From: Candidatus Thorarchaeota archaeon
GTDB taxonomy: Archaea; Asgardarchaeota; Thorarchaeia; Thorarchaeales; Thorarchaeaceae
Assembly (NCBI GenBank): GCA_016933575.1
Contig: JAFGAR010000059.1
Coordinates: forward strand, 1 to 11,861
Length of the DNA stretch: 11,861 bases
Direction of reading: 5' to 3'
The notes under the pieces: generated by a model
Seen by the model: the letters and a program-made list of their open reading frames with translations, nothing else
What the model was told of the DNA's origin: nothing
Database searches by the model: none
Program-made: the position numbers and the translations under genes
Part shown: positions 2 to 11,861 of the stretch, piece by piece
Layout of the letters: every line of letters begins with the position of its first letter
Numbering within the stretch: the stretch's first letter is position 1

Positions 2-3000
2 CCGAACATCATTCTCTACCATGCAGGAGCTGCAGCGACAAGGTCCGGTCCGACTGCTGCATGGATCGCCAGCTACTGGCATGGGCTGCAGCTCATCAAG
101 CAGAGATCTGGATCAGAGAAGGTGCTATGGATCGACCTTACGGGGGACTTTTCTCAGAGTCGTTTGGCACGAGATCGTCTACGAATCTCTTGTCAGGAAC
201 AGGATGTTCGAGAGATATGGGACCGAATCGAGTGGGTAGGTCTTTCGGGGGGTGTCACTGCTCTGCTCTCAGGAGAATCTTCCATCCCAAACTTGCTATC
301 AGAGCTGGATGCACATCTCGATGCAACAGGCCTCTCAATGATCGTGGTCAGCGGATGGAGCGACCTTGAGGAGTCGACCCCGGAGTTTCGAACGAAGCCT
401 CTCATGAGCATCAAGAAGGCACTTATCGAGTCCATTTCTAGGACTGCCATTCCGGTTCTCTGGTTCATGTCACCAAGAGTATCTGAAGAAACCTCAGTCA
501 TCTACCAGAGTCGTGCATTTGGACCTGTTGATGATATGCTCCTGGATGATAAGGTGGCTGAAACGATCTGGAATCTTCCTGTCAAGCCCTATGCCTTTGG
601 TCAGATAACGCCGTTGTTAGATGACCTGCGTGTCATCATTTGCGAACAAGGAGATGATATCTACCCTGAGCTGGTAGAGGTCCCCCCTCTCAAAGAATGG
701 TCCTCCAGATTCTGGACCCAACAACGGGGTGGAAAGGCATCCTATCAAGGCACGAGAGGGAGGATTGTGCTGGAGGCATCCGATGTGAAGGAGAGCTCCT
801 TCCTCAGAAATGAGATGCTACAGGCAGCTCTTGAGATGGTCCCTCAGCTACGAGCAAAGAGGAAACGAGAGGAGTCCCTGTCAGTCATGATCGAAAAACA
901 ACCCATTAGCACGACTCCGGGCATTCCTTCTCGGTTGATCTATCGTTCATATGGCCATAAGATTGGAATGGGAAAAGGCTATGCAGCATCTACTCAATCG
1001 GTTCCAGCCATATCATTTAGACGAAGATACAGAGTCGATAGCGTTTCAGAGTCTGAGATCAGAGTGACAACGAGAATCCCGCATCTCGCATCCATGCGAA
1101 TGGTTGGGCTTGATCATGACCTTGCTAGAAAGATCGAGCATGAGCGGCTTCACCAGGTACTGGACTTCTTGGCCAACTTAGACTCCGAAAGCAGTGATAC
1201 TACTTCTTTATGGCTCTCGTTCTTATCCTTATTGGAAGAAATCTTAGCCACTTCAAAGGATCCCTCCATGGATTCTGCAGCGATTCCAAGGTTTCTTGAG
1301 ATGCATCCCGTATCCAGCGAGGTCTGGGAGGTAATCTACTGGATACGAGAGAAGACCTTGCTCGATGGTGTGAATCCACGAGAACGACGACTGCTTGATG
1401 TCATACTGTCCCAAGAACCCGCGATTATACAAGAGGTTGGCAACTATCTGCTATTGCTCATTCTTGGCATTTCCCACAAGTATCCCGCTATTGGTACAGA
1501 TGGTATCAAGAGACTCTGGAAAGACGCTTCCGGATGGGTCTTGATGCAGTTGGGTCTTAGGTTCGATAGGCCAGTAGCGTTCAACGTCTGCGCATTATGG
1601 AATTTTCTATGCAAGAGTGCTCGATACTACGGAACGAGAATAGTCGTATCTAATCCAGATACAAAAGGGATCGTGATAGTAGTCGAGGCTCCAGAGAACT
1701 TGAACGACTTCTGGCTATTCATTGAGGAGCCCACCAATACAGATCGCATCTTGAGTGGTGTCTGGCGAGGACTCAATCCCTTCTTTCCAAATGACAAGAT
1801 GCGTTGGGGACTCGTTTCTCATGACGATATCACATCAAGTGCAGCCGCTTGTGATGCTCCATCTGAAGAGTATGGGGTTGTGATACATCATGAGGGTGAT
1901 CAGAGATATCTCTGGATACGTGAGGAGTACACTTGGCAGCTTCTGGGCGAGGTCCAGCTTGTACGACAGTGCAGACAGCTTCTCGATATCCGTGGCATGC
2001 ATATTACTGCTCAACCCGATAGCCACATCCTTCCTCCTCCCGCTAAAGAGGAGGATTCGCACGAGCTGAGGATACGAATTCAAAAGAAGCTCGCGGACAT
2101 AAGGGAAAGGGCCAGAAGAAGAGTTCCCGTGAAGATTCATCTAGACATTGAGAGAAACGACTTTGTTATCATTCTGCTTGAGGACAACCAGGTCTTGGAG
2201 GAAGTGAGGCTCAGGAAGACCGCAGAGATGATCGACTTCCTGCGTATCCCCATTATTCTTCATGGATTATCAACCGATTTCGAGGTGTACAAGGACGCGT
2301 ATACTTGGAACCCATACGAAGATATCGAGTTCGGAGAACTCAAGATCATCCGTCCATTCGTTGAGCGGAGAAATCCCTTTCCTGGGTTTCAATTCACATT
2401 GCCTCGAGATGTCACTGGCTTCTCATCTCTTGAGCAGGAGGAACTGAGGGTTGAGATTACGCATGACAAATCCCTCTGTCCGCTATTCCTAGGTAAGTCC
2501 CTACAACATGATACCTGCTGGAGGATGCAAGTGCATGATGTGATAAATCCATCGCTCGCCCTGCATCTAAGCAAGCGTGTGACCGATCTAGACATATTCA
2601 GGTTACAGGCTGCTGAGGAAATCATCATGGGCAACAAACAATACCATTTGCAGCTCAGATTCACTCCCAATCCCACCTCTCGAGATGGTGTTGTCTTTAG
2701 AGAGAGTGGTAGAATCGCTTGGCAACTAGGGCTGAGAAGGCTCCCAGCTGGGACCTACCTAGAGATGGATCAGGAGAAGCTGGTCTGCGCATTGCAAAAA
2801 CACAAGAACGAGGTCCAATTGATTGTACGATCGAATAAGACCGCTGATCAAGTCTATTCTTGGCTTCTCTTCAAGACAGACTCGAAACCTGATGAGGAGG
2901 AGCTACTTGAGGCATTGGACCAAACTCTTGAAGGGATCGTGGAAACGTATTTTGGAGATAACCAATCTGTAGAAGAGGATGTTTCAGGTTATGAAGAGCT

Positions 3001-3034
3001 AGTATCAGATTTGAGAACAATGATTGAAGACTAA
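2..3034 (+). CDS. Large hypothetical protein (>1010 aa, cut at the window's 5' edge) with a degenerate RecA/RadA-like domain in the visible N-terminal part
   Basis: The frame of the 122..3034 ORF is open back to position 2 (PNIILYHAGAAATRSGPTAAWIASYWHG...EKVLWIDLTGDF), so GTG122 is probably internal. Stop TAA at 3032-3034. Segments VLWIDLTGDFSQSRL, LSMIVVSG and IPVLWFMSP resemble RadA-family core strands. Confidence 0.85.
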   Translation, partial: PNIILYHAGAAATRSGPTAAWIASYWHGLQLIKQRSGSEKVLWIDLTGDFSQSRLARDRLRISCQEQDVREIWDRIEWVGLSGGVTALLSGESSIPNLLSELDAHLDATGLSMIVVSGWSDLEESTPEFRTKPLMSIKKALIESISRTAIPVLWFMSPRVSEETSVIYQSRAFGPVDDMLLDDKVAETIWNLPVKPYAFGQITPLLDDLRVIICEQGDDIYPELVEVPPLKEWSSRFWTQQRGGKASYQGTRGRIVLEASDVKESSFLRNEMLQAALEMVPQLRAKRKREESLSVMIEKQPISTTPGIPSRLIYRSYGHKIGMGKGYAASTQSVPAISFRRRYRVDSVSESEIRVTTRIPHLASMRMVGLDHDLARKIEHERLHQVLDFLANLDSESSDTTSLWLSFLSLLEEILATSKDPSMDSAAIPRFLEMHPVSSEVWEVIYWIREKTLLDGVNPRERRLLDVILSQEPAIIQEVGNYLLLLILGISHKYPAIGTDGIKRLWKDASGWVLMQLGLRFDRPVAFNVCALWNFLCKSARYYGTRIVVSNPDTKGIVIVVEAPENLNDFWLFIEEPTNTDRILSGVWRGLNPFFPNDKMRWGLVSHDDITSSAAACDAPSEEYGVVIHHEGDQRYLWIREEYTWQLLGEVQLVRQCRQLLDIRGMHITAQPDSHILPPPAKEEDSHELRIRIQKKLADIRERARRRVPVKIHLDIERNDFVIILLEDNQVLEEVRLRKTAEMIDFLRIPIILHGLSTDFEVYKDAYTWNPYEDIEFGELKIIRPFVERRNPFPGFQFTLPRDVTGFSSLEQEELRVEITHDKSLCPLFLGKSLQHDTCWRMQVHDVINPSLALHLSKRVTDLDIFRLQAAEEIIMGNKQYHLQLRFTPNPTSRDGVVFRESGRIAWQLGLRRLPAGTYLEMDQEKLVCALQKHKNEVQLIVRSNKTADQVYSWLLFKTDSKPDEEELLEALDQTLEGIVETYFGDNQSVEEDVSGYEELVSDLRTMIED

Positions 3035-3057
3035 TGGTCCTCTGCGTCTGGATGTTT

Positions 3058-3106
3058 AAGTGTTAGAAGAAGGTGAGTGAACTTTCTCAGCAACTTCAAA
3101 CTCCCG
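3058..3106. repeat. Left copy of an imperfect 49-bp direct repeat (partner 11685-11733)
   Basis: aagtgttagaagaaggtgagtgaactttctcagcaacttcaaactcccg vs aagtcttagtggaaggtgagtgaaccttctccataaccttcaactcccg: 39/49 identical ungapped, with a perfect 14-bp core gaaggtgagtgaac (3069-3082 / 11696-11709). Confidence 0.85.
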
Positions 3107-3601
3107 ACTTTGTTATTAGATTCCCAGAGGATAGGAAAACTCTCGAAGAGGTTCGACTCAGGGAGACTTCGGATTTGCTGAATTCCGACGTATTTCATTG
3201 GTTGGATATAGAAATGATGTTGAATTACAAGCCAACAATTGAACTCAATATTGGAAGCAAAAGATATTCAGAGAAAGCGAAAGATTGGCATGACTTGCTG
3301 GACTAAGAAAAATAATTCCTGTAATCTATCTAAAAATGAATAAAGAAAGGTTAGTCTGTTCCTTATTGAAACACCGAAATGAAGTTCAACTGATTGTAAA
3401 GTCGGACAAAACACATGATATTATACATTCTAGCTTTCTCTTCGAGATTGATACAAAACTATAGAGCAAGAAATAGTGTTATCTTTAGATAATCATCTTG
3501 AACGAGTTATTGAAGCATACTTTAGTGATATCCATAGTGTAGAAGAGGTAGTTTTGGACTATAGGAATCTATTACCTGATATCAAGAATATAATTCAAGG
3601 A
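3106..3601 (+). pseudogene. Decayed, internally deleted second copy of the C-terminal region of the upstream large gene
   Basis: 3106-3183 DFVIRFPEDRKTLEEVRLRETSDLLN matches DFVIILLEDNQVLEEVRLRKTAEMID (2159-2236). 3267-3458 FRESERLA*LAGLRK..YLKMNKERLVCSLLKHRNEVQLIVKSDKT.. matches FRESGRIAWQLGLRR..YLEMDQEKLVCALQKHKNEVQLIVRSNKT.. (35/64 identical; Trp replaced by TGA at 3291). A frameshift near 3460 is followed by EQEIVLSLDNHLERVIEAYFSDIHSVEEVV, matching EEELLEALDQTLEGIVETYFGDNQSVEEDV. Confidence 0.92.
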
Positions 3602-3615
3602 TCTTGCCAGTTGCA

Positions 3616-4596
3616 TCAGAAGACAAACAGCCCATTGTCAAATGCATAAAGATGGATTGATCTTATCATTGTCAGAGTTAGTAATGCTATCTCTATAGCG
3701 CCCTCCGGATTTATCGTCCATATTTCCGAGGTCTTTTTATCCATACTATGTGTTGCCGCATTCCGAACAGAGCCAATGCCTTCACATAATTCTCTGTGCT
3801 TGTTATCCATCTTTTTTTCACTATAGATTTTCTGAGAGAGTTCAATTATCCCATTTGAATTGGAATCATCAATCCCTATAGATTTACATATTATCCTCAG
3901 ATAGTTTTCAAAAGCTCTTCCTGAGTCGTCTATCGAATGGCGAGGATTTGCTCGATGATTCATCACAGCTGATACAATGTGGTCAATTGATTTATCCAAC
4001 AACCTAAAAGAATAATCTCCAACACGTTGTGCAATATAGGTCCTGATGTTCAATTCACTTTTCATAGCTTCGAGAAGTTCCTCGATAATTTCCACGCTCA
4101 AGGAATTCGTTTTCACTTTGACAAGAAGCTTCCCTTCTTGATTCTGTTCTAATAAATCCGAATAGATACCCCACCCAGATAGGACACGTCTTGTTCTATC
4201 CGCATTCAAACCAATCTCAAACACAGTTGCTGTTTTTCGTCCTGCTTCCTCAAGGGAATCACCTCTTCCAATTTGAGAAACAAACAAGACAAATGGAGGA
4301 TATTTAACAAGAGATCTTCCAAAAACTATGCGATATTGATTCTTTGTAGCTCTTGACACTTCTATGGCACTTTCAGAAATGAAATACCTATCATCTCGCT
4401 TGACTAAAAGGTTCAGCTGAAGAGCACAGGAAAGAGCGCTTCTTGCATACCTCTCTGTTTTTTCCAAGTATTTTGCCAGGAATTTTGTGTCTACTCCTTC
4501 TTCTCGTTTATTCCAGCTAGCTTCCACAGCTTGCATAATTTTATCAGCGGTCACATCCTGAAGTTTATACTCTTGACTATCATTCATATCAATCAA
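3616..4596 (-). CDS. Tandem winged-helix-like module fused to a C-terminal HEPN RNase domain (Abi_C/DUF4145-like)
   Basis: 326-aa ORF (alternative start ATG at 4587, MNDSQ). The C-terminus has a HEPN-like helix SGRAFENYLRIIC and an intact Rx4H motif RNAATH (3748-3765), followed by the helix PEGAIEIALLTLTMIRSI. The N-terminus (VTADKIMQAV..FLAKYLEKTERYARSALSCALQLNLL..Y) resembles the 5491 ORF. It overlaps the stop of the upstream gene. Confidence 0.8.
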   Translation of the reverse strand: MIDMNDSQEYKLQDVTADKIMQAVEASWNKREEGVDTKFLAKYLEKTERYARSALSCALQLNLLVKRDDRYFISESAIEVSRATKNQYRIVFGRSLVKYPPFVLFVSQIGRGDSLEEAGRKTATVFEIGLNADRTRRVLSGWGIYSDLLEQNQEGKLLVKVKTNSLSVEIIEELLEAMKSELNIRTYIAQRVGDYSFRLLDKSIDHIVSAVMNHRANPRHSIDDSGRAFENYLRIICKSIGIDDSNSNGIIELSQKIYSEKKMDNKHRELCEGIGSVRNAATHSMDKKTSEIWTINPEGAIEIALLTLTMIRSIHLYAFDNGLFVF

Positions 4597-5266
4597 TCCT
4601 CAGTTTATCGGATACAGATTTTCCCTCTCGCTCAATGTAGCAAACCAATGCTTCTCTATCAATTGCATATATGTTAGAATGAATCTCGAGCAGAATTATA
4701 TCCTTATCATTTGGAATCTCAAGAATTTTCCTTGTGGTTTTATCGGATTCTGACGAGTCATGAATAAACGTAACAATATCATCAAGTACGGCAATCAATT
4801 TAATCTCTGTCAGTAGGTCAAATAGCGTATTAATACGACATTCTGATGCTTTCTTTCCTGTCTGCGTTTTGAAAGCTTTAGCAATTGAGTCTTTCAACTC
4901 GTTGACATCGAATTTTGGTTTTATCTTTGATTTCAATCTGATGAGAGAGCCTATCCATGATTCCAGAATATGTTTCTGTAATGCCTCTCTTAGATCATTA
5001 TCCGAGGATAGCACCTGAATAAAATCTTCAGATGGTTGATATCTGCTACCTTCAGCTCTTTCCAAGACTCCTATACTTATCCAAAACCCAACACATCTAC
5101 TGACATTGTCGACCGCGAGAGTTACAATAGGAGCGACATCTCTTCTGCTAACCCCCTTTTCTGTTTCTTCGTATATCGCCAGAATGGACTGTATCAACTC
5201 CAGTTGTCTTTCCACACTTACTTTGGCATATGGCAAATCAATTACATCACCTGAATCCTTACTCAC
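4589..5266 (-). CDS. Tandem winged-helix-like protein (subtype II, DUF5343-like in style) with a small C-terminal domain
   Basis: 225-aa ORF with GTG start preceded by GAGGGG. HTH-wing pattern VSRRDVAPIVTLAVDNVSRCVGFWISIGVLER..RYQP and a second unit INTLFDLLTEIKLI. Similar to the 6302 ORF and to the N-terminus of the 7685 ORF. Confidence 0.75.
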   Translation of the reverse strand: MSKDSGDVIDLPYAKVSVERQLELIQSILAIYEETEKGVSRRDVAPIVTLAVDNVSRCVGFWISIGVLERAEGSRYQPSEDFIQVLSSDNDLREALQKHILESWIGSLIRLKSKIKPKFDVNELKDSIAKAFKTQTGKKASECRINTLFDLLTEIKLIAVLDDIVTFIHDSSESDKTTRKILEIPNDKDIILLEIHSNIYAIDREALVCYIEREGKSVSDKLRID

Positions 5267-5405
5267 CTTATTACCCCTCTAATCTAGCACCACTTCAAGA
5301 GCATATTAGAAAGCCAAGAAACCCATATCTTTTTTTTCATGATATCTGCAGAGCAGCATTGTTTCTGATTTAGGAGTCCTTGAATTCTCATGTATTGATT
5401 TATAT

Positions 5406-5436
5406 TTGACATAACAACTTAGTTTCACGTTATAAT
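5406..5436 (+). promoter_or_regulatory. Perfect sigma70-type hexamers TTGACA-N19-TATAAT in the divergent intergenic region (function uncertain)
   Basis: TTGACA at 5406-5411 and TATAAT at 5431-5436, 19-bp spacer. Dyads ataac (5411-5415)/gttat (5429-5433) and aact-t-agtt (5416-5424). Confidence 0.3.
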
Positions 5437-5466
5437 TTAGGGTACAGTGCGTATTAAGTACTACAA

Positions 5467-5477
5467 TATATATATAA
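5467..5477 (+). promoter_or_regulatory. Putative archaeal TATA box for the rightward operon
   Basis: tatatatataa lies about 40 bp upstream of the likely ATG5518 (MSDNQ), which is preceded by gtggt. Confidence 0.45.
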
Positions 5478-5490
5478 GTTTATTAGGCAA

Positions 5491-6342
5491 ATGAAATACT
5501 ATGCACTAGTGGTATTAATGTCAGATAATCAAGAAAGCTTGGAAATAGCCGTTCCGAGTGTGACAATTGAAATAATTGGAAAGGTGGTGAGAGGATTATA
5601 TTCCTTCAAGAAACCGGCAGGATACAAGGATTTGAAGGCATTAGTCAGTCTTCATGAAATCACGGTCAGTCAAGGTCTTAATGCTGCCAAAGATTTAGGA
5701 CTGGCTAAGCAAACTGGAGGTAGGGGTATATATGAATTGACTGAAACTGGAATGAATTTTGCCAGACTTCTAAGTTTTGGAAAGGAATCAGAATGCAGAT
5801 TACTATTAGCAAAGCAGATCATGACCATGAGCAACTGGTCCGAAGTTGTTTCATTTCTTGAAATGAACGTAAATACATCTCGTAATCCACTTGATTTGGT
5901 TATGCATGTTGAAGGGAGACTGGGAAAAATGTGGAAGAATCGTATGCGCTCAAAGGTAGCAAATTCATATCGATCAATATTGGAATATGCGGGACTAATA
6001 GAAATAGACGGGAATGATATTGTTTCAGTACTACCCGATGAAGATGAACAACACAAGTTCCTAGAATCAGAGGCATCTCCGATGAAAAGCCGTGAAAAAC
6101 AACCTCCTGATTCAGGAATCTACTCTTTCTCAATAACACAAGCAAGGATTGAAAGTGATTATTCGGAATTCAGCATTCCCGAGTTCTTCATAGTATTTGT
6201 GAAGAAAACGCAATATGCCATAAAATTCTTTCAAGATCAAATAAAAGATGGGAGCGTCTTCTCAGCATGGCTTGAAACGTTGAAAGTGGGACTAAAAAAC
6301 GATGAGCAAACTGCTATGGAGGTGTATGAGGATATTGAGTGA
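5491..6342 (+). CDS. Tandem winged-helix-like protein (subtype I) with a linker and small C-terminal domain
   Basis: 283-aa ORF (likely true start ATG5518). YKDLKALVSLHEITVSQGLNAAKDLGLA..GIYELTETG is a classic wHTH wing motif, and the second unit is YRSILEYAGLIEIDG. A nearly full-length paralogous pseudogene lies at 6841-7591. Confidence 0.8.
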   Translation: MKYYALVVLMSDNQESLEIAVPSVTIEIIGKVVRGLYSFKKPAGYKDLKALVSLHEITVSQGLNAAKDLGLAKQTGGRGIYELTETGMNFARLLSFGKESECRLLLAKQIMTMSNWSEVVSFLEMNVNTSRNPLDLVMHVEGRLGKMWKNRMRSKVANSYRSILEYAGLIEIDGNDIVSVLPDEDEQHKFLESEASPMKSREKQPPDSGIYSFSITQARIESDYSEFSIPEFFIVFVKKTQYAIKFFQDQIKDGSVFSAWLETLKVGLKNDEQTAMEVYEDIE

Positions 6343-6844
6343 GGACAGACCACCAACATTGGTGCCGACATCGAGTATGAGCTTTGAAAAGCAAATCCTT
6401 ATTCTCAGAGCATATGTTGTTCTGACAAATGATGGGACCGAACCTGTTCACTATAAAGTGGTAATGAACAGAACTGGATTAGCGCGAACTCAAATAGCTG
6501 GTACAAATGCCTTTTTTGTGAGCTTGGGGCTTCTTAGGCATGCTAGTAAGGGAACATATCTTCCCCCTCCTGAAACTGTTCAATTCATTGGCGAAAAACC
6601 TGGAAATGAAGATTATTCCACAATCAGAACGACGCTAGAAAAATCACCGCTGTTTGATTTCATTAGAGAACTAATCAGAATTCATGGTGAAGTCACGATT
6701 GATGATGCTATATCTTTCTTGTTGACTGAATCAGGTGAAAAGACTCGATCTAGAGCAGAACGATCTATTCAATGGTTGGAAAAATGCGGAATTTTAGAAG
6801 TATCTGAGGAGGGGATTCTATCGCTAAGTGGTGAAATACAATGA
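6302..6844 (+). CDS. Stand-alone tandem winged-helix-like protein (subtype II)
   Basis: 180-aa ORF. The likely start is TTG6335 after GGAGGTG (6318-6324), overlapping the upstream stop. LVPTSSMSFEKQILIL..AFFVSLGLLRH..GTYLP aligns with LPYAKVSVERQLELI..GFWISIGVLER..SRYQP of the 5266 ORF. The second unit is SIQWLEKCGILEV. Confidence 0.8.
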   Translation: MSKLLWRCMRILSEDRPPTLVPTSSMSFEKQILILRAYVVLTNDGTEPVHYKVVMNRTGLARTQIAGTNAFFVSLGLLRHASKGTYLPPPETVQFIGEKPGNEDYSTIRTTLEKSPLFDFIRELIRIHGEVTIDDAISFLLTESGEKTRSRAERSIQWLEKCGILEVSEEGILSLSGEIQ

Positions 6845-7591
6845 CAGATGATGACCAAATAACAACAAACAAGCAATGGCATGTATTCATATGGATAATC
6901 AGCTGATAGGAAAAATCTTGCAAATCACATTGGTATGAATGAATCTGAATTTGGTATAACCTTGTCCGATGCATTGGATTTGGATCTGGTTTCAAAAGGA
7001 TTAGAACGAGGCCATTATGTTCTAACTGATGAAGGAAGAAGTTTTGCAATTTTTCCTGGGCATGCGAAGGATGATGATTGTAAAGAAATACTTGGCAATC
7101 CTATTCTTTCGTCTAGAAAATAGAGAACAATTGTCAATCATCTAAACTCCCAAATTGATAATCAAATGCCCATATCTGATTTAGTGGTCTTCGTTGAGCA
7201 AAAGCACAACCGGTCTTGGAGTCGAGGCCGCCGAAGCAAGGCGGAAGGTGCTTATCAAACAATCTTGAGCTATGCTGGACTTGTTGAAATAAAAGATAAT
7301 CTACTCACAACCACTTCCAGAATAATGGAAAACACAGGACTGCCAAAGGGGATTGCTATTTCTGATAGTATCTCCCTGAACACATACCAACTTGGCTTAT
7401 TATCACTAAAGGAGTTGATTCAGAAGAAGAGGAATTCATAATATGCAGAGCTTACCATTCCTGATACTTGTTATATATTCTTAATAATGAGCTTGGAGTC
7501 AATAAATAACCTTAGAGCATTAATCTCAGCAGATGGGTTTATTCATGTCTGGTTAGATGAGCTCTCAAAACACACCAAGAAAATCAATTAA
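6841..7591 (+). pseudogene. Pseudogene paralog of the 5491-6342 subtype I wHTH gene
   Basis: ATG6841 overlaps the previous stop (ATGA). After an early deletion/frameshift one frame reads GMYSYG*SADRKNL..ALDLDLV..GHYVLTDEG..SRK*RTIVNHL..YQTILSYAGLVEI..NS*YAELTIPD..VWLDEL, collinear with GLYSFKKPAGYKDL..AKDLGLA..GIYELTETG..SNWSEVVSFL..YRSILEYAGLIEI..SDYSEFSIPE..AWLETL. Internal stops are at 6896 (TAA), 7121 (TAG) and 7439 (TAA); the final TAA is 7589-7591. It joins the track ORFs 6935..7123 and 7166..7441. Confidence 0.9.
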
Positions 7592-7684
7592 AACTTGATG
7601 ATATTCACGAAATCAAGCTTTATTTGTATCGGATTATCCCATTGTTGATGCTAGACTTGCTCGAATAGATGGTGGTAGGATAGA

Positions 7685-9634
7685 TTGTCCGATAGTAAAC
7701 TAGCAATACCCATTGGAGTTTCAAATTTAGGACTGAAAGGTGTGCTAAAATCTTGGTTCAGGTCCCGAGCACACATCAATCCTCTTACAATAGACGATGT
7801 GGCAAAGAAAACAGCATCAAAAAAGCAGACAATTCAACGACAGATGCCGTTTCTGCTTCAAATAGGGATTCTCGAAAAAACCAATGACACATATCAACTC
7901 ACTGAAGATGGTCGATATGCCGCACAGTATTCTGAATACTCTCAAGATGTAGATTTTGCAGCAACTTTGAACCGTCTTGTTTCAAGGTGGAGTGAAATTC
8001 AGTCGATCTTGGACTATTTGGAGGATGCAAAAGAAGTTCACGTTTCAACCCTGAAAAAGAGGATAATGATGTACTCGGAAAGGGCTCCTACAGATAGGAA
8101 TGTGGAGATGGGTGCTGATGCGCTGATTGATTTATTGACAGAGATAGGAGTCTTGACTAAAATCGAGCATAAAATCAGAATCCTTAGGCGCACGCATCCT
8201 GGAGTGGAACCCGTTACTCCAACTCGCATAGATACTAATGAGATGTGGATAGATTCCATACGAATCAAGAATATCAAGTCCATCATTGATACCACATTCA
8301 CTACAAGAAAGATGAATATCTTCATCGGAGCGAATGGATCCGGAAAATCATCTATATTGCATGCACTTCTATCCCTTCGAAACATCAAATGGGAACGATC
8401 CCATGCGGAAGGAGTATATTCCGAGTTGTTTCTTTTGCAGCGTAAGGGATCTCAAGATTCTATGTATATTGAACTAGAAGGACATGTTCCATCCGAAAAC
8501 GCCAATGATAGATTTGAGTTCAGGGTTACTATCACCCCTGCAATGTCATTTTTCTGGCAACTATGTCTTGAGAGAAACTCGATCGGACTATGCGACACTT
8601 CAATGCTTACCAAAGCCCAAGATTTACGACCTCCATTATCACTCTATAAAGGTCTTGAGCCGATTAAGGAGTTTGTTGAAAAGACATCTCAGGGCATGTC
8701 CCAATTGAATGAAATGTTTCATGGCAATATGGACTTCGATGAATCAGAAAAGTCAAGTTCTGAACCTTTTACGAGTATGATTTCATTTCTAGAAGATAAT
8801 CATGGCAACATTGTACAGAATTTTCAAGAACGAAGATTTCTGACCTCTTGGAATCAAGTACTGCCCGAATTTCTAAGAAACGACGAGTATGAAAATATTC
8901 GATTGAGTTACCTGAAAGTAAGACCTATACTTAGCACCTATATCGACTCATTTGAGTTCGTTCCTGTCCTTAGAGGTTTCCTCAGCACAGAATACGAACA
9001 ACGAAAAGCTCCCTCCGACCGGATTCCAGATGATCTCAACTATGTCTTGTATATTCTGAATAAAATGGTCTACAAAGATGATATTGACCCTCTAAAGATG
9101 GAAAAACTCAAGAGATGGGCTGAGAGATTTGGGATACGTGATTTTGAAGCTGTGATTACACGGGGCCCAAGAATAGAACCCCGCGGATCAATATTTGATG
9201 GAAAGGCAACTCTTCCAGTTTCGTTGTATGGTTTTGGATTAAATCAATCTCTTGCACTGATGGCAAAATGCATTTACTCAGAGGATAATTCGCCAATTTT
9301 AATTGAAGAACCCGAGATACATCTTCATCCAGAATACCAAGCACAAATTGCAGATTTTCTTATTGAATCTATGAAGGAAGGTCATCAGCTTTTCATAGCC
9401 ACTCATTCAGAGCATCTTATCGGACGAATCCAGAGGAGAATTGCGGAAGGAATACTGAAGCAAAAGGATGTACAAATTCTCTGGGTAGTACATGATTCAG
9501 AAAAGGGAACGCAAGTCGAAGAAGTGGAAATGGACGATTCTGGAATCATTCATGAAGGACTTCAATCATATCTGAGCTTTCTGGAGGAGGAAATGCGAGC
9601 AACAGAACGAACTCGTAGAGAGCACAAGGAGTGA
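7685..9634 (+). CDS. N-terminal tandem wHTH-like module fused to an ABC-superfamily ATPase (AAA_15/AAA_21-like) with a DUF3696-like tail
   Basis: 649 aa, TTG start after GGTGGT. IDSIRIKNIKSI, Walker A GANGSGKS (8327-8350), signature variant LYGFGLNQ (~9224-9247), Walker B/D-loop ILIEEPEIHLHP (9296-9331), H-loop ATHS (9398-9409). The first ~165 aa contain DVAKK..FLLQIGILEK..YQLTEDG and DLLTEIGVL. Confidence 0.9.
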   Translation: MSDSKLAIPIGVSNLGLKGVLKSWFRSRAHINPLTIDDVAKKTASKKQTIQRQMPFLLQIGILEKTNDTYQLTEDGRYAAQYSEYSQDVDFAATLNRLVSRWSEIQSILDYLEDAKEVHVSTLKKRIMMYSERAPTDRNVEMGADALIDLLTEIGVLTKIEHKIRILRRTHPGVEPVTPTRIDTNEMWIDSIRIKNIKSIIDTTFTTRKMNIFIGANGSGKSSILHALLSLRNIKWERSHAEGVYSELFLLQRKGSQDSMYIELEGHVPSENANDRFEFRVTITPAMSFFWQLCLERNSIGLCDTSMLTKAQDLRPPLSLYKGLEPIKEFVEKTSQGMSQLNEMFHGNMDFDESEKSSSEPFTSMISFLEDNHGNIVQNFQERRFLTSWNQVLPEFLRNDEYENIRLSYLKVRPILSTYIDSFEFVPVLRGFLSTEYEQRKAPSDRIPDDLNYVLYILNKMVYKDDIDPLKMEKLKRWAERFGIRDFEAVITRGPRIEPRGSIFDGKATLPVSLYGFGLNQSLALMAKCIYSEDNSPILIEEPEIHLHPEYQAQIADFLIESMKEGHQLFIATHSEHLIGRIQRRIAEGILKQKDVQILWVVHDSEKGTQVEEVEMDDSGIIHEGLQSYLSFLEEEMRATERTRREHKE

Positions 9635-10143
9635 TAGGAATGGCTTGTCAAGGGTTGAGAGTCATTCTAGACACATCTGTGTTCGTCTTTTGGTATAATA
9701 GATATGATAATTATCTTGAAATAATGAAGTGTATTCGAGAAGAAGGATTCAAACTGGTGCTTTGCGAAGGATTGAGAAGGGAATATCTAGCAAATCTCTT
9801 TGGTAGATCCACATCTAACTACTATTTGCTTCAAAGAGAGCTCGAAAAACTAAGGATGGAGCAAATCCTTGAATATGCTAATCCTAAGAATAATAACAGT
9901 GTTGTCATCCACGAGGACGACCAGCATGTACTAGATTGTGCACTTACAGAAGATTGTCATGTACATATGATTGTAACAGATAATACGTCTCATTTTCAAT
10001 CCAAATCCGTAAAGTATAACCTACCACTGATTATATCTTCCAAAGAGTTTCAAGAGAAGAACACTTGTCATACCTTTTGCAGCGAAGCAAAAAGAATCTG
10101 TCAAAAAATCATAGAAATTGGTGAGAAGGTAAGATACAGTTGA
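9631..10143 (+). CDS. PIN-domain ribonuclease (VapC/PIN_3-like)
   Basis: 170 aa with GTGA overlap on the ATPase stop (alternative start ATG9640). PIN acidic motifs VILDTSVF, LRREY, HEDDQHVLDCAL and MIVTDN. Confidence 0.85.
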   Translation: MIGMACQGLRVILDTSVFVFWYNRYDNYLEIMKCIREEGFKLVLCEGLRREYLANLFGRSTSNYYLLQRELEKLRMEQILEYANPKNNNSVVIHEDDQHVLDCALTEDCHVHMIVTDNTSHFQSKSVKYNLPLIISSKEFQEKNTCHTFCSEAKRICQKIIEIGEKVRYS

Positions 10144-10291: not shown

Positions 10292-11533
10292 ATGGGATGG
10301 GAGGTGCGCTTGGTGAAACTAAATAAATCAGTGGTAGGAAAAGCAGTCATTTCTATTGTTTTAGTAACTTCCATAGTAGTTATTTGGAATATCTTTCAGG
10401 AACCCTTATCGGATCCGAATCAAGGATTGTACAATGGTTCAGGGGCAAAAGATGCATACTTACCGGAAGGGCGTGTTTACTACCTTTCTGGGGCAGTAAA
10501 TATCACTCAAGATCAAAGCCATCATGTCTATTTATGGTATAATCAATCCGCACTTGGAGATTTGAGATGGGCATATATCGTCTATTACAATGGAACTCAT
10601 AATCCAAACTATGATGGAAACCTAACAACCCCATGGGGGAGTCCGAATCTTGATTGGTGGACTGAAAAGTCATACCTCTTCGCTGATGTGTTTAACAGTA
10701 GTGAGTTTTATCCGCAGCAATACAATATACCAGCTCAAGAACCCGGAACTACAGTGACTTACCAGCTAAGATTCCACATTTGGTCTGAGGGTCAGATGAT
10801 TTACCGCACAGTGAATCAAACTTACACAGTGATATATTCAGACTTGTATATAGAAGCTCAGGAATTATTGCATTCGATTGTTGAATTCTATTTCGTGACA
10901 TTCCCAATAATCATTCTAAGCGTCATGGCTCTCTTTGAAATATCATCTAGGATTGATACTAGTCCTTCTCTTCCAATCATAGATATCAGAGATGCTCCAC
11001 TTGCGAAGCTGGAGAAACCAATACTCGTGGCACGATGTGACAAAATGGAGGATATAAAGAATAATCTCCTGATTCAATCTGCAGCACTCGTCGGGCTTGG
11101 TAGCTTTTGGAGTCTTGTTGGATTTGATATAATCAATGGCATGTTCACATCTTTTGGCAGTATAATTCTAGTTATCCTATCATTTCTTTCAGTAATGGCT
11201 TCAATTCCAGAAATCAATGCTACTGCTTATGATACCGAACTAAGTATGAGTCTACTACCAAGAGGTCAAAATGAACAACAATATGAAAAACAACTTGAGT
11301 ATTTGATCGAACGAAAAGAAAAGGTAAACAAAAATATGAAATCTCTGATGCATTTGGGAGTTGGAGTGTTTGTCGCATCGATTATTGCAGATATCATATC
11401 TCCCATATTCCCATATCACGATAATTTAGCAGGAATATTCTGGTGGCCATATTTCTTCATTTGCGTGATTTATGCAATGCTATGGCTAATGATAATGATC
11501 CTCGACATTATCTTCAGTCTACTCCGAAAATAA
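10292..11533 (+). CDS. Multi-pass membrane protein with a predicted N-glycosylated extracellular domain; function unknown
   Basis: 413 aa (likely start TTG10310 or GTG10313). Basic N-terminus plus hydrophobic anchor AVISIVLVTSIVVIW, then a ~155-aa Tyr/Asn/Gly-rich domain with seven N-x-S/T sequons (NGS, NIT, NQS, NGT, NLT, NSS, NQT), then about five further hydrophobic segments. Confidence 0.85.
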   Translation: MGWEVRLVKLNKSVVGKAVISIVLVTSIVVIWNIFQEPLSDPNQGLYNGSGAKDAYLPEGRVYYLSGAVNITQDQSHHVYLWYNQSALGDLRWAYIVYYNGTHNPNYDGNLTTPWGSPNLDWWTEKSYLFADVFNSSEFYPQQYNIPAQEPGTTVTYQLRFHIWSEGQMIYRTVNQTYTVIYSDLYIEAQELLHSIVEFYFVTFPIIILSVMALFEISSRIDTSPSLPIIDIRDAPLAKLEKPILVARCDKMEDIKNNLLIQSAALVGLGSFWSLVGFDIINGMFTSFGSIILVILSFLSVMASIPEINATAYDTELSMSLLPRGQNEQQYEKQLEYLIERKEKVNKNMKSLMHLGVGVFVASIIADIISPIFPYHDNLAGIFWWPYFFICVIYAMLWLMIMILDIIFSLLRK

Positions 11534-11562: not shown

Positions 11563-11682
11563 TCATATCCTTTGGGGGCATTTGACTTTCATCACCCTTA
11601 GTAGTACAATCTCGCAGTGACTCAGTCCTACATATAATCTTTCACGTAGAGTGATGTCTTCGGCTGCATACACCAATCTGTT

Positions 11683-11861
11683 TCAAGTCTTAGTGGAAGG
11701 TGAGTGAACCTTCTCCATAACCTTCAACTCCCGTGTTCCACCATTCTCACGACACTCGTCACCGATGAAACTCGAGAATAGACTTCAGCGTTTGCAAATT
11801 GTGAGTGGCTCCCAGTTTTATCATGTGGGATGCAAAGAACGTATTCGCCTTGAACGGCAAA
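11683..11861 (-). other. Possible 3' end of a convergent, possibly disrupted gene entering from beyond the window
   Basis: The frame ending ..EKVHSPSTKT*(11683) is blocked upstream by a stop at 11785-11787. The two other minus frames are open from the window edge but end earlier, so the true frame is unresolved. Confidence 0.3.
11685..11733. repeat. Right copy of the imperfect 49-bp direct repeat (partner 3058-3106)
   Basis: 39/49 identity to 3058-3106. The minus-strand translation RELKVMEKVHSPSTKT* compares with REFEVAEKVHSPSSNT* in the left copy. Confidence 0.85.

Follow-up and report, generated by a model that had tools for sequence, protein, structure and literature searches.

We report that the 11,861-nucleotide (nt) contig JAFGAR010000059.1 (C33) of a Candidatus Thorarchaeota archaeon, analysed in its entirety and called the window below, carries six related genes or gene remnants (g1 to g6, within positions 3616-9634) that share a module of ~160 amino acids (aa) with a predicted double winged-helix fold. 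One copy leads into a HEPN domain (g1), and another into an ABC ATPase (g6) whose gene is followed by a PIN gene (g7). By analogy with characterised systems, we favour with modest confidence the view that this is a segment of a defence island, built of combinable immune cassettes that would share one type of DNA reader. Judged by its sequence, the locus is a candidate variant of known ATPase-plus-nuclease anti-virus systems and not a wholly new kind. The evidence consists of the homology of the modules, the identities of the attached domains, intact catalytic motifs, the recurrence and shuffling of the cassettes and the island context.

The genome is a 3.47-Mb metagenome assembly of 215 contigs with 85% completeness. 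Genes were called from a list of open reading frames (ORFs) together with family scans (Pfam, PADLOC) of the window ORFs, and the revised starts of g1, g3 and g7 given below were suggested by orthologs.

Six copies of one module

The genes g1 to g7 abut or overlap their neighbours by a few bases. On the minus strand lie g1 (3616-4596; 326 aa, likely true start ATG 4587) and g2 (4589-5266; 225 aa), a free module with a tail. On the plus strand follow g3 (5491-6342; likely start 5518), a free module with a C-terminal extension, g4 (6302-6844; start uncertain, 6302-6335), which consists of the module only, g5 (~6863-7591), g6 (7685-9634; 649 aa) and g7 (9631-10143; 170 aa). The divergent intergenic region (5267-5490) is AT-rich and contains a TATA-like run ~16 nt before the g3 ATG at 5491, from which a promoter role can be inferred.

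Direct pairwise BLAST among the window copies gave weak matches, the best at 1e-6 to 1e-8 and none for g1. Comparison of small profiles by hhalign linked four subfamilies at 72-97% probability, with g1 at 23% or less. Therefore, a larger profile and the orthologs of g1 were needed to settle the homology. The test profile was built from family members with every g1-like sequence left out, and was searched against all 7650 ORFs of at least 80 aa in the genome. It matched g3 at 4.7e-47, g4 at 3.8e-39, g6 at 3e-36, g2 at 1.4e-30 and both pieces of g5, one of them at 1.5e-8. Because only a single further ORF scored outside the window (3e-9), the clustering of modules in the window is far beyond chance. 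That module-like ORF of 198 aa starts at position 19416 of contig C105 (plus strand) and covers profile positions 35-153.

In g1 itself, only the first winged helix was matched (6e-5), which is no better than generic winged helix-turn-helix (wHTH) proteins. Its four orthologs, however, matched profile positions 3-163 at 1e-8 to 1e-12; hence g1 appears to carry a diverged full module. One g1 homolog also scored 5e-5 on the Pfam family PF09821, as other members of the module family do. On these sequence comparisons we accept six module copies, g1 being the most diverged. The count of six related ~160-aa modules, which an earlier note had proposed from the sequence alone, was thus borne out by the genome-wide profile and the g1 orthologs, and so was its division into three free copies (g2, g3 and g4), one pseudogene and two copies fused to effectors.

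The pseudogene is g5, a second g3-type paralog which has lost its N-terminus and start and contains three in-frame stops: TAA at 6896, TAG at 7121 in place of a conserved Trp, and TAA at 7439. When read through with X at the stops, it aligns over its full length to intact orthologs of 266 aa in locus L004 and 251 aa in locus L012. Each window copy shares 30-66% identity with its ortholog elsewhere and at most ~25% with its neighbours in the window. Since each is far closer to the ortholog than to the neighbours, the paralogs are old and differentiated.

The ABC ATPase and PIN cassette

The protein of g6 combines the module (residues 1-170) with an ABC ATPase (~185-649), and the reading frame of the latter is intact. 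Pfam assigned AAA_15 (87.5 bits, 1.9e-24) and AAA_21 (72.9 bits, 6.3e-20) to it, both above their cut-offs, while a DUF3696 tail was not detected by the same scan. No variation was found among 6 orthologs in Walker A, Walker B or the H-loop, and F-G-x-N-Q stands at the signature position. The neighbouring g7 (likely start 9640), which begins 0-5 nt after the ATPase gene, encodes a single-domain PIN protein, with a match to PIN_3 at 2.5e-9 (38.4 bits; cut-off 27) and with D14, E51, D97 and D117 invariant in 4 orthologs. The ABC ATPase copy followed by a PIN gene, as read earlier from the sequence, is therefore supported by three families above cut-off. The same order recurs in L004, L005, L006 and L012, where the PIN gene lies directly 3' of the ABC gene.

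Among the PADLOC models, g6 matched NsnB best (2.6e-39, model positions 2-325 of 345), followed by AriA (1.5e-25) and HEC-03 (8.9e-24). The match to the HEC-03 model PDLC04148 has its best stretch only at residues 515-643, and both NsnB and AriA score higher.

NsnB belongs to Menshen, which is reportedly the NsnA-NsnB-NsnC system described by Millman in 2022. Menshen is modelled as a chain of sensor, transducer (the ABC ATPase) and effector (containing a PIN domain), in which wHTH domains are frequent as sensors (PMC12065111). Its sensor NsnA is a separate ParB-DUF262 protein, NsnB has GxG in place of the SGG signature, and NsnC joins an inactive PIN to a C-terminal nuclease (PMC12065111). The ATPase of g6 is accordingly nearest to NsnB, and its F-G-x-N-Q recalls the GxG of that protein. 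In contrast to Menshen, the presumed sensor of g6 is fused to the ATPase. Moreover, g7 does not qualify as an NsnC, as it is a single PIN with its acidic residues kept and no appended nuclease.

HEC-03 (Hma-embedded candidate 03; Payne et al.) consists of an ABC ATPase and a VapC-like PIN protein; for the homolog studied in that work, phage defence required the two genes together (bioRxiv 10.1101/2024.01.29.577857). The cassette g6+g7 is likewise a two-gene unit in which an OLD-ABC-type ATPase is followed by an adjacent single-domain PIN. It differs from HEC-03 in the N-terminal double winged-helix reader added to g6, in a model match that is partial and weaker than that to NsnB, in the 3-4 further reader paralogs and the HEPN cassette of the window, and in its archaeal host. 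By sequence, the nearest architecture to g6+g7 is HEC-03, and the nearest relative of the g6 ATPase is Menshen NsnB. The earlier note had recognised no named system here. This stands for the locus as a whole, which no PADLOC system model fits, but not for its ABC and PIN pair or its ATPase. In the literature, we found no paper on this reader family with these effectors; the pieces belong to known kinds.

The HEPN cassette

In g1, the diverged module occupies residues ~10-165 and the HEPN domain residues ~170-326, in which R278 and H283 form the RxxxxH motif. Both residues are invariant in 5 homologs. When the ESM Atlas model of the C-terminal part was compared, Abi_C, DUF4145, HEPN and RiboL-PSP clusters were found at template modelling (TM) scores of 0.59-0.72, and unnamed ~320-aa clusters at TM 0.86-0.95. 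The Pfam match of g1 to HEPN_Apea was sub-threshold (0.02), as was that of its orthologs to DUF4145, and a PDB sequence-profile search with g1 gave no meaningful match. The model nevertheless places an Rx4-6H motif within a predicted helical HEPN fold, the combination that defines the HEPN superfamily. The HEPN Rx4H domain assigned earlier to one copy therefore holds on the invariant residues and the modelled fold. HEPN proteins of abortive infection (Abi_C/AbiJ-like, DUF4145 and RnlA-type) share the Rx4H motif and the HEPN fold with g1; the N-terminal partner in g1 is the double winged-helix reader, and not the N-domain of AbiJ or RnlA.

The adjoining g2 consists of the module and a beta-beta-alpha tail of ~55 aa. 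A g2-like gene lies directly upstream of a g1-like gene in L012, L013/14, L015/16 and L017 as well, so the two constitute a recurrent cassette.

Fold and family of the module

A model of g3 was computed by AlphaFold2 (AF2) from an 82-sequence alignment, with a pLDDT score (predicted local distance difference test) of 88.7. It comprises a first winged helix (WH1) at 26-83, three linker helices, a winged-helix-like second unit (WH2) at 133-179 and a beta-beta-alpha-alpha tail at 222-283. Foldseek returned no significant match for this model. Its two (w)HTH units are set in a BrxA-like arrangement. According to a 2026 NAR analysis of BREX, the two HTH modules of BrxA are structurally homologous to the recognition domains of FokI and BpuJI and to SspB/DUF4007 (PMC12839542). 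Because of this homology, the g3 model falls in a recognised class of defence DNA readers, and the module fold, as modelled, resembles the bipartite DNA readers of the BrxA/SspB/FokI type. The likeness is one of fold, as no window copy matched the Pfam families of DUF1819, DUF4007 or FokI domains at E<=1. The window also differs from BrxA (DUF1819), the SspB N-terminal DUF4007 and FokI-BpuJI-N.BspD6I in that it contains no BREX or Ssp partners, and in that its reader occurs in 5-6 paralogs and is fused to RNase and ATPase effectors.

At the level of sequence, Pfam PF09821 (AAA_assoc_C) comes closest; its description is that of an appendage at the C-terminus of transporter-type ABC ATPases, to which no function has been assigned. 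It was matched by 13 of the 29 longer module-bearing proteins at E<=1e-3 (best 2.4e-12). Sub-threshold matches were found for L011, P0020, P0030 and one g1 homolog, the relatives reaching 23.8-26.9 bits against a gathering threshold of 27.6 bits, which some longer family members exceed clearly, while none of the six window copies reached E 1 in the Pfam scan. The window copies therefore seem to form a divergent sister branch of PF09821. For the module itself, neither NCBIfam nor PADLOC holds a model. Its ESM Atlas neighbours include PF09821, DUF7226, FokI-recognition and Mrr_cat+nSTAND1 clusters from Actinomycetota, Methanobacteriota and others.

The family is large. When 1.84 billion proteins were searched with a profile of 21 module copies from this and related loci, 1602 representative clusters were retrieved at E<=1e-3, of which 560 scored E<=1e-10; the clusters inspected were the best 150 of the ~1600.

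A reading of the module as an SMC kite protein (ScpB/MukE/JetB), which is a tandem winged-helix partner of a kleisin and a coiled-coil SMC ATPase, was set aside. A long coiled-coil insert is absent from g6, whose ATPase is of the AAA_15/NsnB type, and no kleisin-like gene was recognised. Kite proteins were also not among the listed structural matches of the module, which by itself would decide little.

Recurrence and shuffling of the cassettes

Full-length relatives of g6 are rare, amounting to 4 clusters in 5.8 billion proteins, and their loci repeat the plus-strand operon of the window, often next to a giant ORF (BIG) which is described below. L004/L037 contains BIG, orthologs of g3 (59%) and g4 (61%), an intact g5 ortholog, the ABC gene and the PIN gene. 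L012/L038, from another genus, contains BIG, a divergent g2 ortholog, a g1 ortholog (51%), a further module protein, a g5-type gene, ABC and PIN. In L006, BIG is accompanied by a g4-type gene, three other small genes, ABC and PIN.

Other loci hold only part of this set. On contigs of other samples, the g2-like/g1-like pair follows a g3-type or double-module gene and no ABC or PIN gene is adjacent. L019 has BIG with g3- and g4-type genes only, and L011 has a free module of the g6 N-terminal type, a g4-type gene (g4 ortholog, 44%) and 390-aa module proteins. The module also accompanies different effectors: in L020 two module genes precede an HD-CE+GHKL protein, in L023 the module is fused to an Rce1-like protease, a module-ABC-TOPRIM protein lies beside SMODS, HNH and NucS genes, and a further module gene adjoins a PARIS-like AAA_15/DUF4435 pair. 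ABC-PIN cassettes are thus found where HEPN is missing, HEPN cassettes where ABC-PIN is missing, and modules together with other effectors. Since the parts recur separately, they are better regarded as combinable cassettes than as a fixed six-part machine, and the earlier proposal of one system with six parts is not borne out. The expectation that multi-copy clusters with varied effectors would recur is supported by these loci. Likewise, the assignment to a conflict or defence locus gains support from the range of effectors found with the module, namely HEPN, ABC+PIN, ABC-TOPRIM, Rce1-like and HD-CE+GHKL proteins.

Among 400 Asgard genomes, 22 had a module match at E<=1e-8, of which 16 belong to the family of the window, and the copies mostly lie within a few kb of each other. 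The g6-type ATPase was present in 4 of 61 relatives.

In five genomes, g4-like genes seemed to contain an 'in-frame TAG', but this is simply their normal terminal stop codon. A family of small proteins (155-183 aa) with an N-terminal beta-hairpin-like motif, distinct from the module, occurs with module cassettes in three loci (L006 6778-7248, minus strand; L015 1225-1692, plus strand; L017 2779-3330, plus strand).

BIG, its TnpB-like neighbour and the repeats

The window opens with the C-terminal 1010 aa of a 5'-truncated BIG (2-3034, plus strand), a protein of ~1600-1800 aa. Members of the BIG family have 1400-2000 aa and no Pfam domain, and form ~39 homolog clusters, essentially all from Thorarchaeota. 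BIG is present in 44 of 86 family genomes, often in 5-9 or more copies per genome. The N-terminal part, beyond the window, contains an E...D...(D/E)xK nuclease-like pattern. The window portion begins with a Rad51/KaiC-like domain of ~240 residues (AF2 model, Foldseek E 8.5e-6), in which Walker A lacks the lysine, followed by helical and beta-rich domains with a conserved H-C-H-C motif. PDB sequence-profile searches with the N- and C-terminal parts of BIG gave no meaningful match.

Divergently 5' of BIG there is always a gene for a ~608-aa protein that contains a Cas12f1-like TNB (TnpB-type) domain. This gene lies at 77-1927 (minus strand) in L004, where BIG spans 2107-7491, at 5959-7785 (plus strand) in L038, where BIG spans 573-5708, and at 5327-7153 (plus strand) in L053. 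The copies are 50% identical between genera. BIG and the TnpB-like gene look like a two-gene unit that is conserved and present in many copies, and that may be a mobile element. BIG stands beside module cassettes in the window, L004/L037, L006, L012/L038 and L019, and BIG with its TnpB-like neighbour is a recurrent flank of the cassettes, which is a new observation. Where the DNA 3' of BIG could be read, at least 8 loci have housekeeping-type genes there in place of module cassettes; hence BIG is a recurrent but facultative neighbour, whose association with the cassettes may reflect either function or an insertion hot spot. Separate histories for BIG and ABC-PIN had been suggested by identity values, and this idea was withdrawn after a four-taxon likelihood test, in which the ABC/PIN topology was also the best, though unresolved, for BIG.

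Directly 3' of the BIG stop, within 3055-3646, lie a 52-nt element (3055-3106, plus strand) and a degenerate partial copy of BIG. This copy of the last ~290 codons (3073-3646, plus strand) contains stops and frame changes, and it looks as if the C-terminal segment of BIG was displaced. C-terminal remnants of BIG were also seen in genomes G029 and G030, close to BIG or module genes or a few kb downstream of them (L047 7066-7803; L018 17268-17774). The second 52-nt element (11682-11733, plus strand) has 79% identity to the first, 8627 bp away. The genome contains four copies of the ~52-nt element; the other two, at 168-204 and 2673-2709 of the 2.8-kb contig C32, bracket the gene of an Mrr_cat restriction endonuclease and a 222-aa gene of no known family. 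Either an array of cassettes or a site of exchange may be marked by the element. C33 and C32 have nearly the same sequence over their last ~180 nt, so the assembly breaks within this repeat. In five other genomes or samples (L043, L045, L049, L050 and L060), the contig ends 70-1200 bp past the BIG stop, which suggests repeated or variable DNA 3' of BIG in many Thorarchaeota.

The bracketed island has a GC content of 38.3%, compared with 42.3% for the genome, and falls within the lowest 2-3% of genome windows. It also encloses g8 (10292-11533, plus strand), a predicted multi-pass membrane protein of 413 aa. No Pfam or PADLOC family was found for g8 and no counterpart in the related loci, and we leave it outside the system. 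No tRNA or Rfam RNA was detected in the window. Contigs from the one available DNA run covered the stretch in fragments and showed no join that bypasses the island, which says little in either direction.

Proposed mechanism and rival explanations

In the combinable-cassette reading, DNA binding, the order of activation, RNA as a target and an antiviral effect are all proposed by analogy with HEC-03, Menshen and BrxA. The reader of g6 would place or gate the ATPase on invader DNA or on an abnormal DNA state. Binding or hydrolysis of ATP would then turn on the PIN protein, and the invader or the infected cell would be stopped. In the second cassette (g2+g1), the same reader would act on a HEPN RNase, and the reader-plus-tail partner encoded always just upstream is probably a co-sensor or a restraint. 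The old, differentiated readers g3, g4 and the dead g5 would most likely provide, or have provided, extra DNA specificities or regulation of the effectors. The low GC content, the bracketing repeat shared with the Mrr_cat cassette and the patchy distribution were counted in favour of an island.

Several points weigh against this reading. Most members of the module family are free 230-280-aa proteins or carry an extra wHTH only, as could equally be expected of plain transcription factors. Because many of the related contigs are short, the absence of a cassette often means only that it is not adjacent. The PIN protein g7 matches no PADLOC model, the PIN models included, and NsnA (DUF262/ParB, ParBDB) was not found among the window ORFs at E<=1 or the scanned genes of L004, L006 and L012. 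Finally, the dead g5 may mean that decay has set in at this locus.

Both HEPN and PIN are well known as domains of toxins. Together with the predominance of free or wHTH-only members, and with a repeat-bracketed island of low GC beside a multi-copy BIG/TnpB-like pair, this could mean that the free copies are transcription repressors, and that g2+g1 and g6+g7 are toxin-type modules which stabilise a mobile island and are not antiviral. However, autoregulation would not call for as many as 3-5 different paralogous repressors per locus, phage defence has been validated for the closest ABC+PIN pair that is characterised (HEC-03), and in defence islands the module also occurs as a fusion with OLD-type and other defence effectors. 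We therefore regard such addiction as rather unlikely. The module might instead be a homotypic adaptor for protein assembly, through which the free copies dock on the ATPase or the HEPN protein in one multi-subunit complex, like effector-associated domains. In agreement with this, the two effectors and 3-4 free proteins per locus carry the same module, each paralog type is conserved across loci, and the g2- and g3-type copies have small conserved tails that could dock. Nevertheless, the module has a fold typical of DNA-recognition domains. Effector cassettes are also seen where the set of free copies is incomplete, and in L019 and L011 free copies are present but effectors are not. Adaptor function is compatible with DNA reading and hence only a partial rival; as the explanation of the module, it seems improbable. 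Between DNA sensors and a homotypic adaptor, the two roles left side by side in the earlier note, the BrxA/SspB/FokI reader fold and the kinship to PF09821 thus favour DNA sensing over a pure adaptor role.

A more integrated version of DNA sensing, which we also judge improbable, makes the 3-5 reader paralogs obligate subunits of one DNA-scanning 'reader array'. This would assemble on invader DNA with the ABC ATPase and license both PIN and HEPN, with BIG perhaps as a DNA-side partner. BIG could even be the principal component, the cassettes serving BIG (with its RecA/KaiC-like domain and nuclease motif) and the TnpB-like neighbour in a mobile-element or DNA-transaction machine in which the readers guide BIG. 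BIG does lie directly upstream of cassettes in 5 loci of different genera, with a BIG remnant by a sixth, and a topology shared by BIG, ABC and PIN is not rejected in the four-taxon test. Such accessory function is very unlikely, however, in view of the BIG loci without module genes, of one cassette-free BIG that is closer to the window BIG than any cassette-linked copy, of the unequal spread of BIG and the module in the family (44 of 86 genomes versus 16 of 85), and of module cassettes outside Thorarchaeota that occur without BIG.

Significance

A major class of prokaryotic immune systems pairs an ABC ATPase with a nuclease (OLD, Gabija, PARIS, Septu, Menshen, HEC-01 to HEC-04), and how its members sense infection is largely open. 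In the window the presumed sensor is explicit, as a BrxA/FokI-like reader is fused to the ATPase; this reader appears again on a HEPN RNase and in several free paralogs that are conserved. What the ATPase reads, and whether the free readers are specificity subunits or brakes, thereby become directly testable questions. The present analysis contributes the BrxA/FokI fold class, the link to PF09821, HEC-03 as the nearest architecture, the evidence for the module in g1, and the context of BIG, its TnpB-like neighbour and the repeats. It provides a likely function and context for a large unannotated family of ~1600 clusters around PF09821, and adds candidate immune systems to the Asgard archaea, whose defence repertoire has mostly been inferred from bacterial models.

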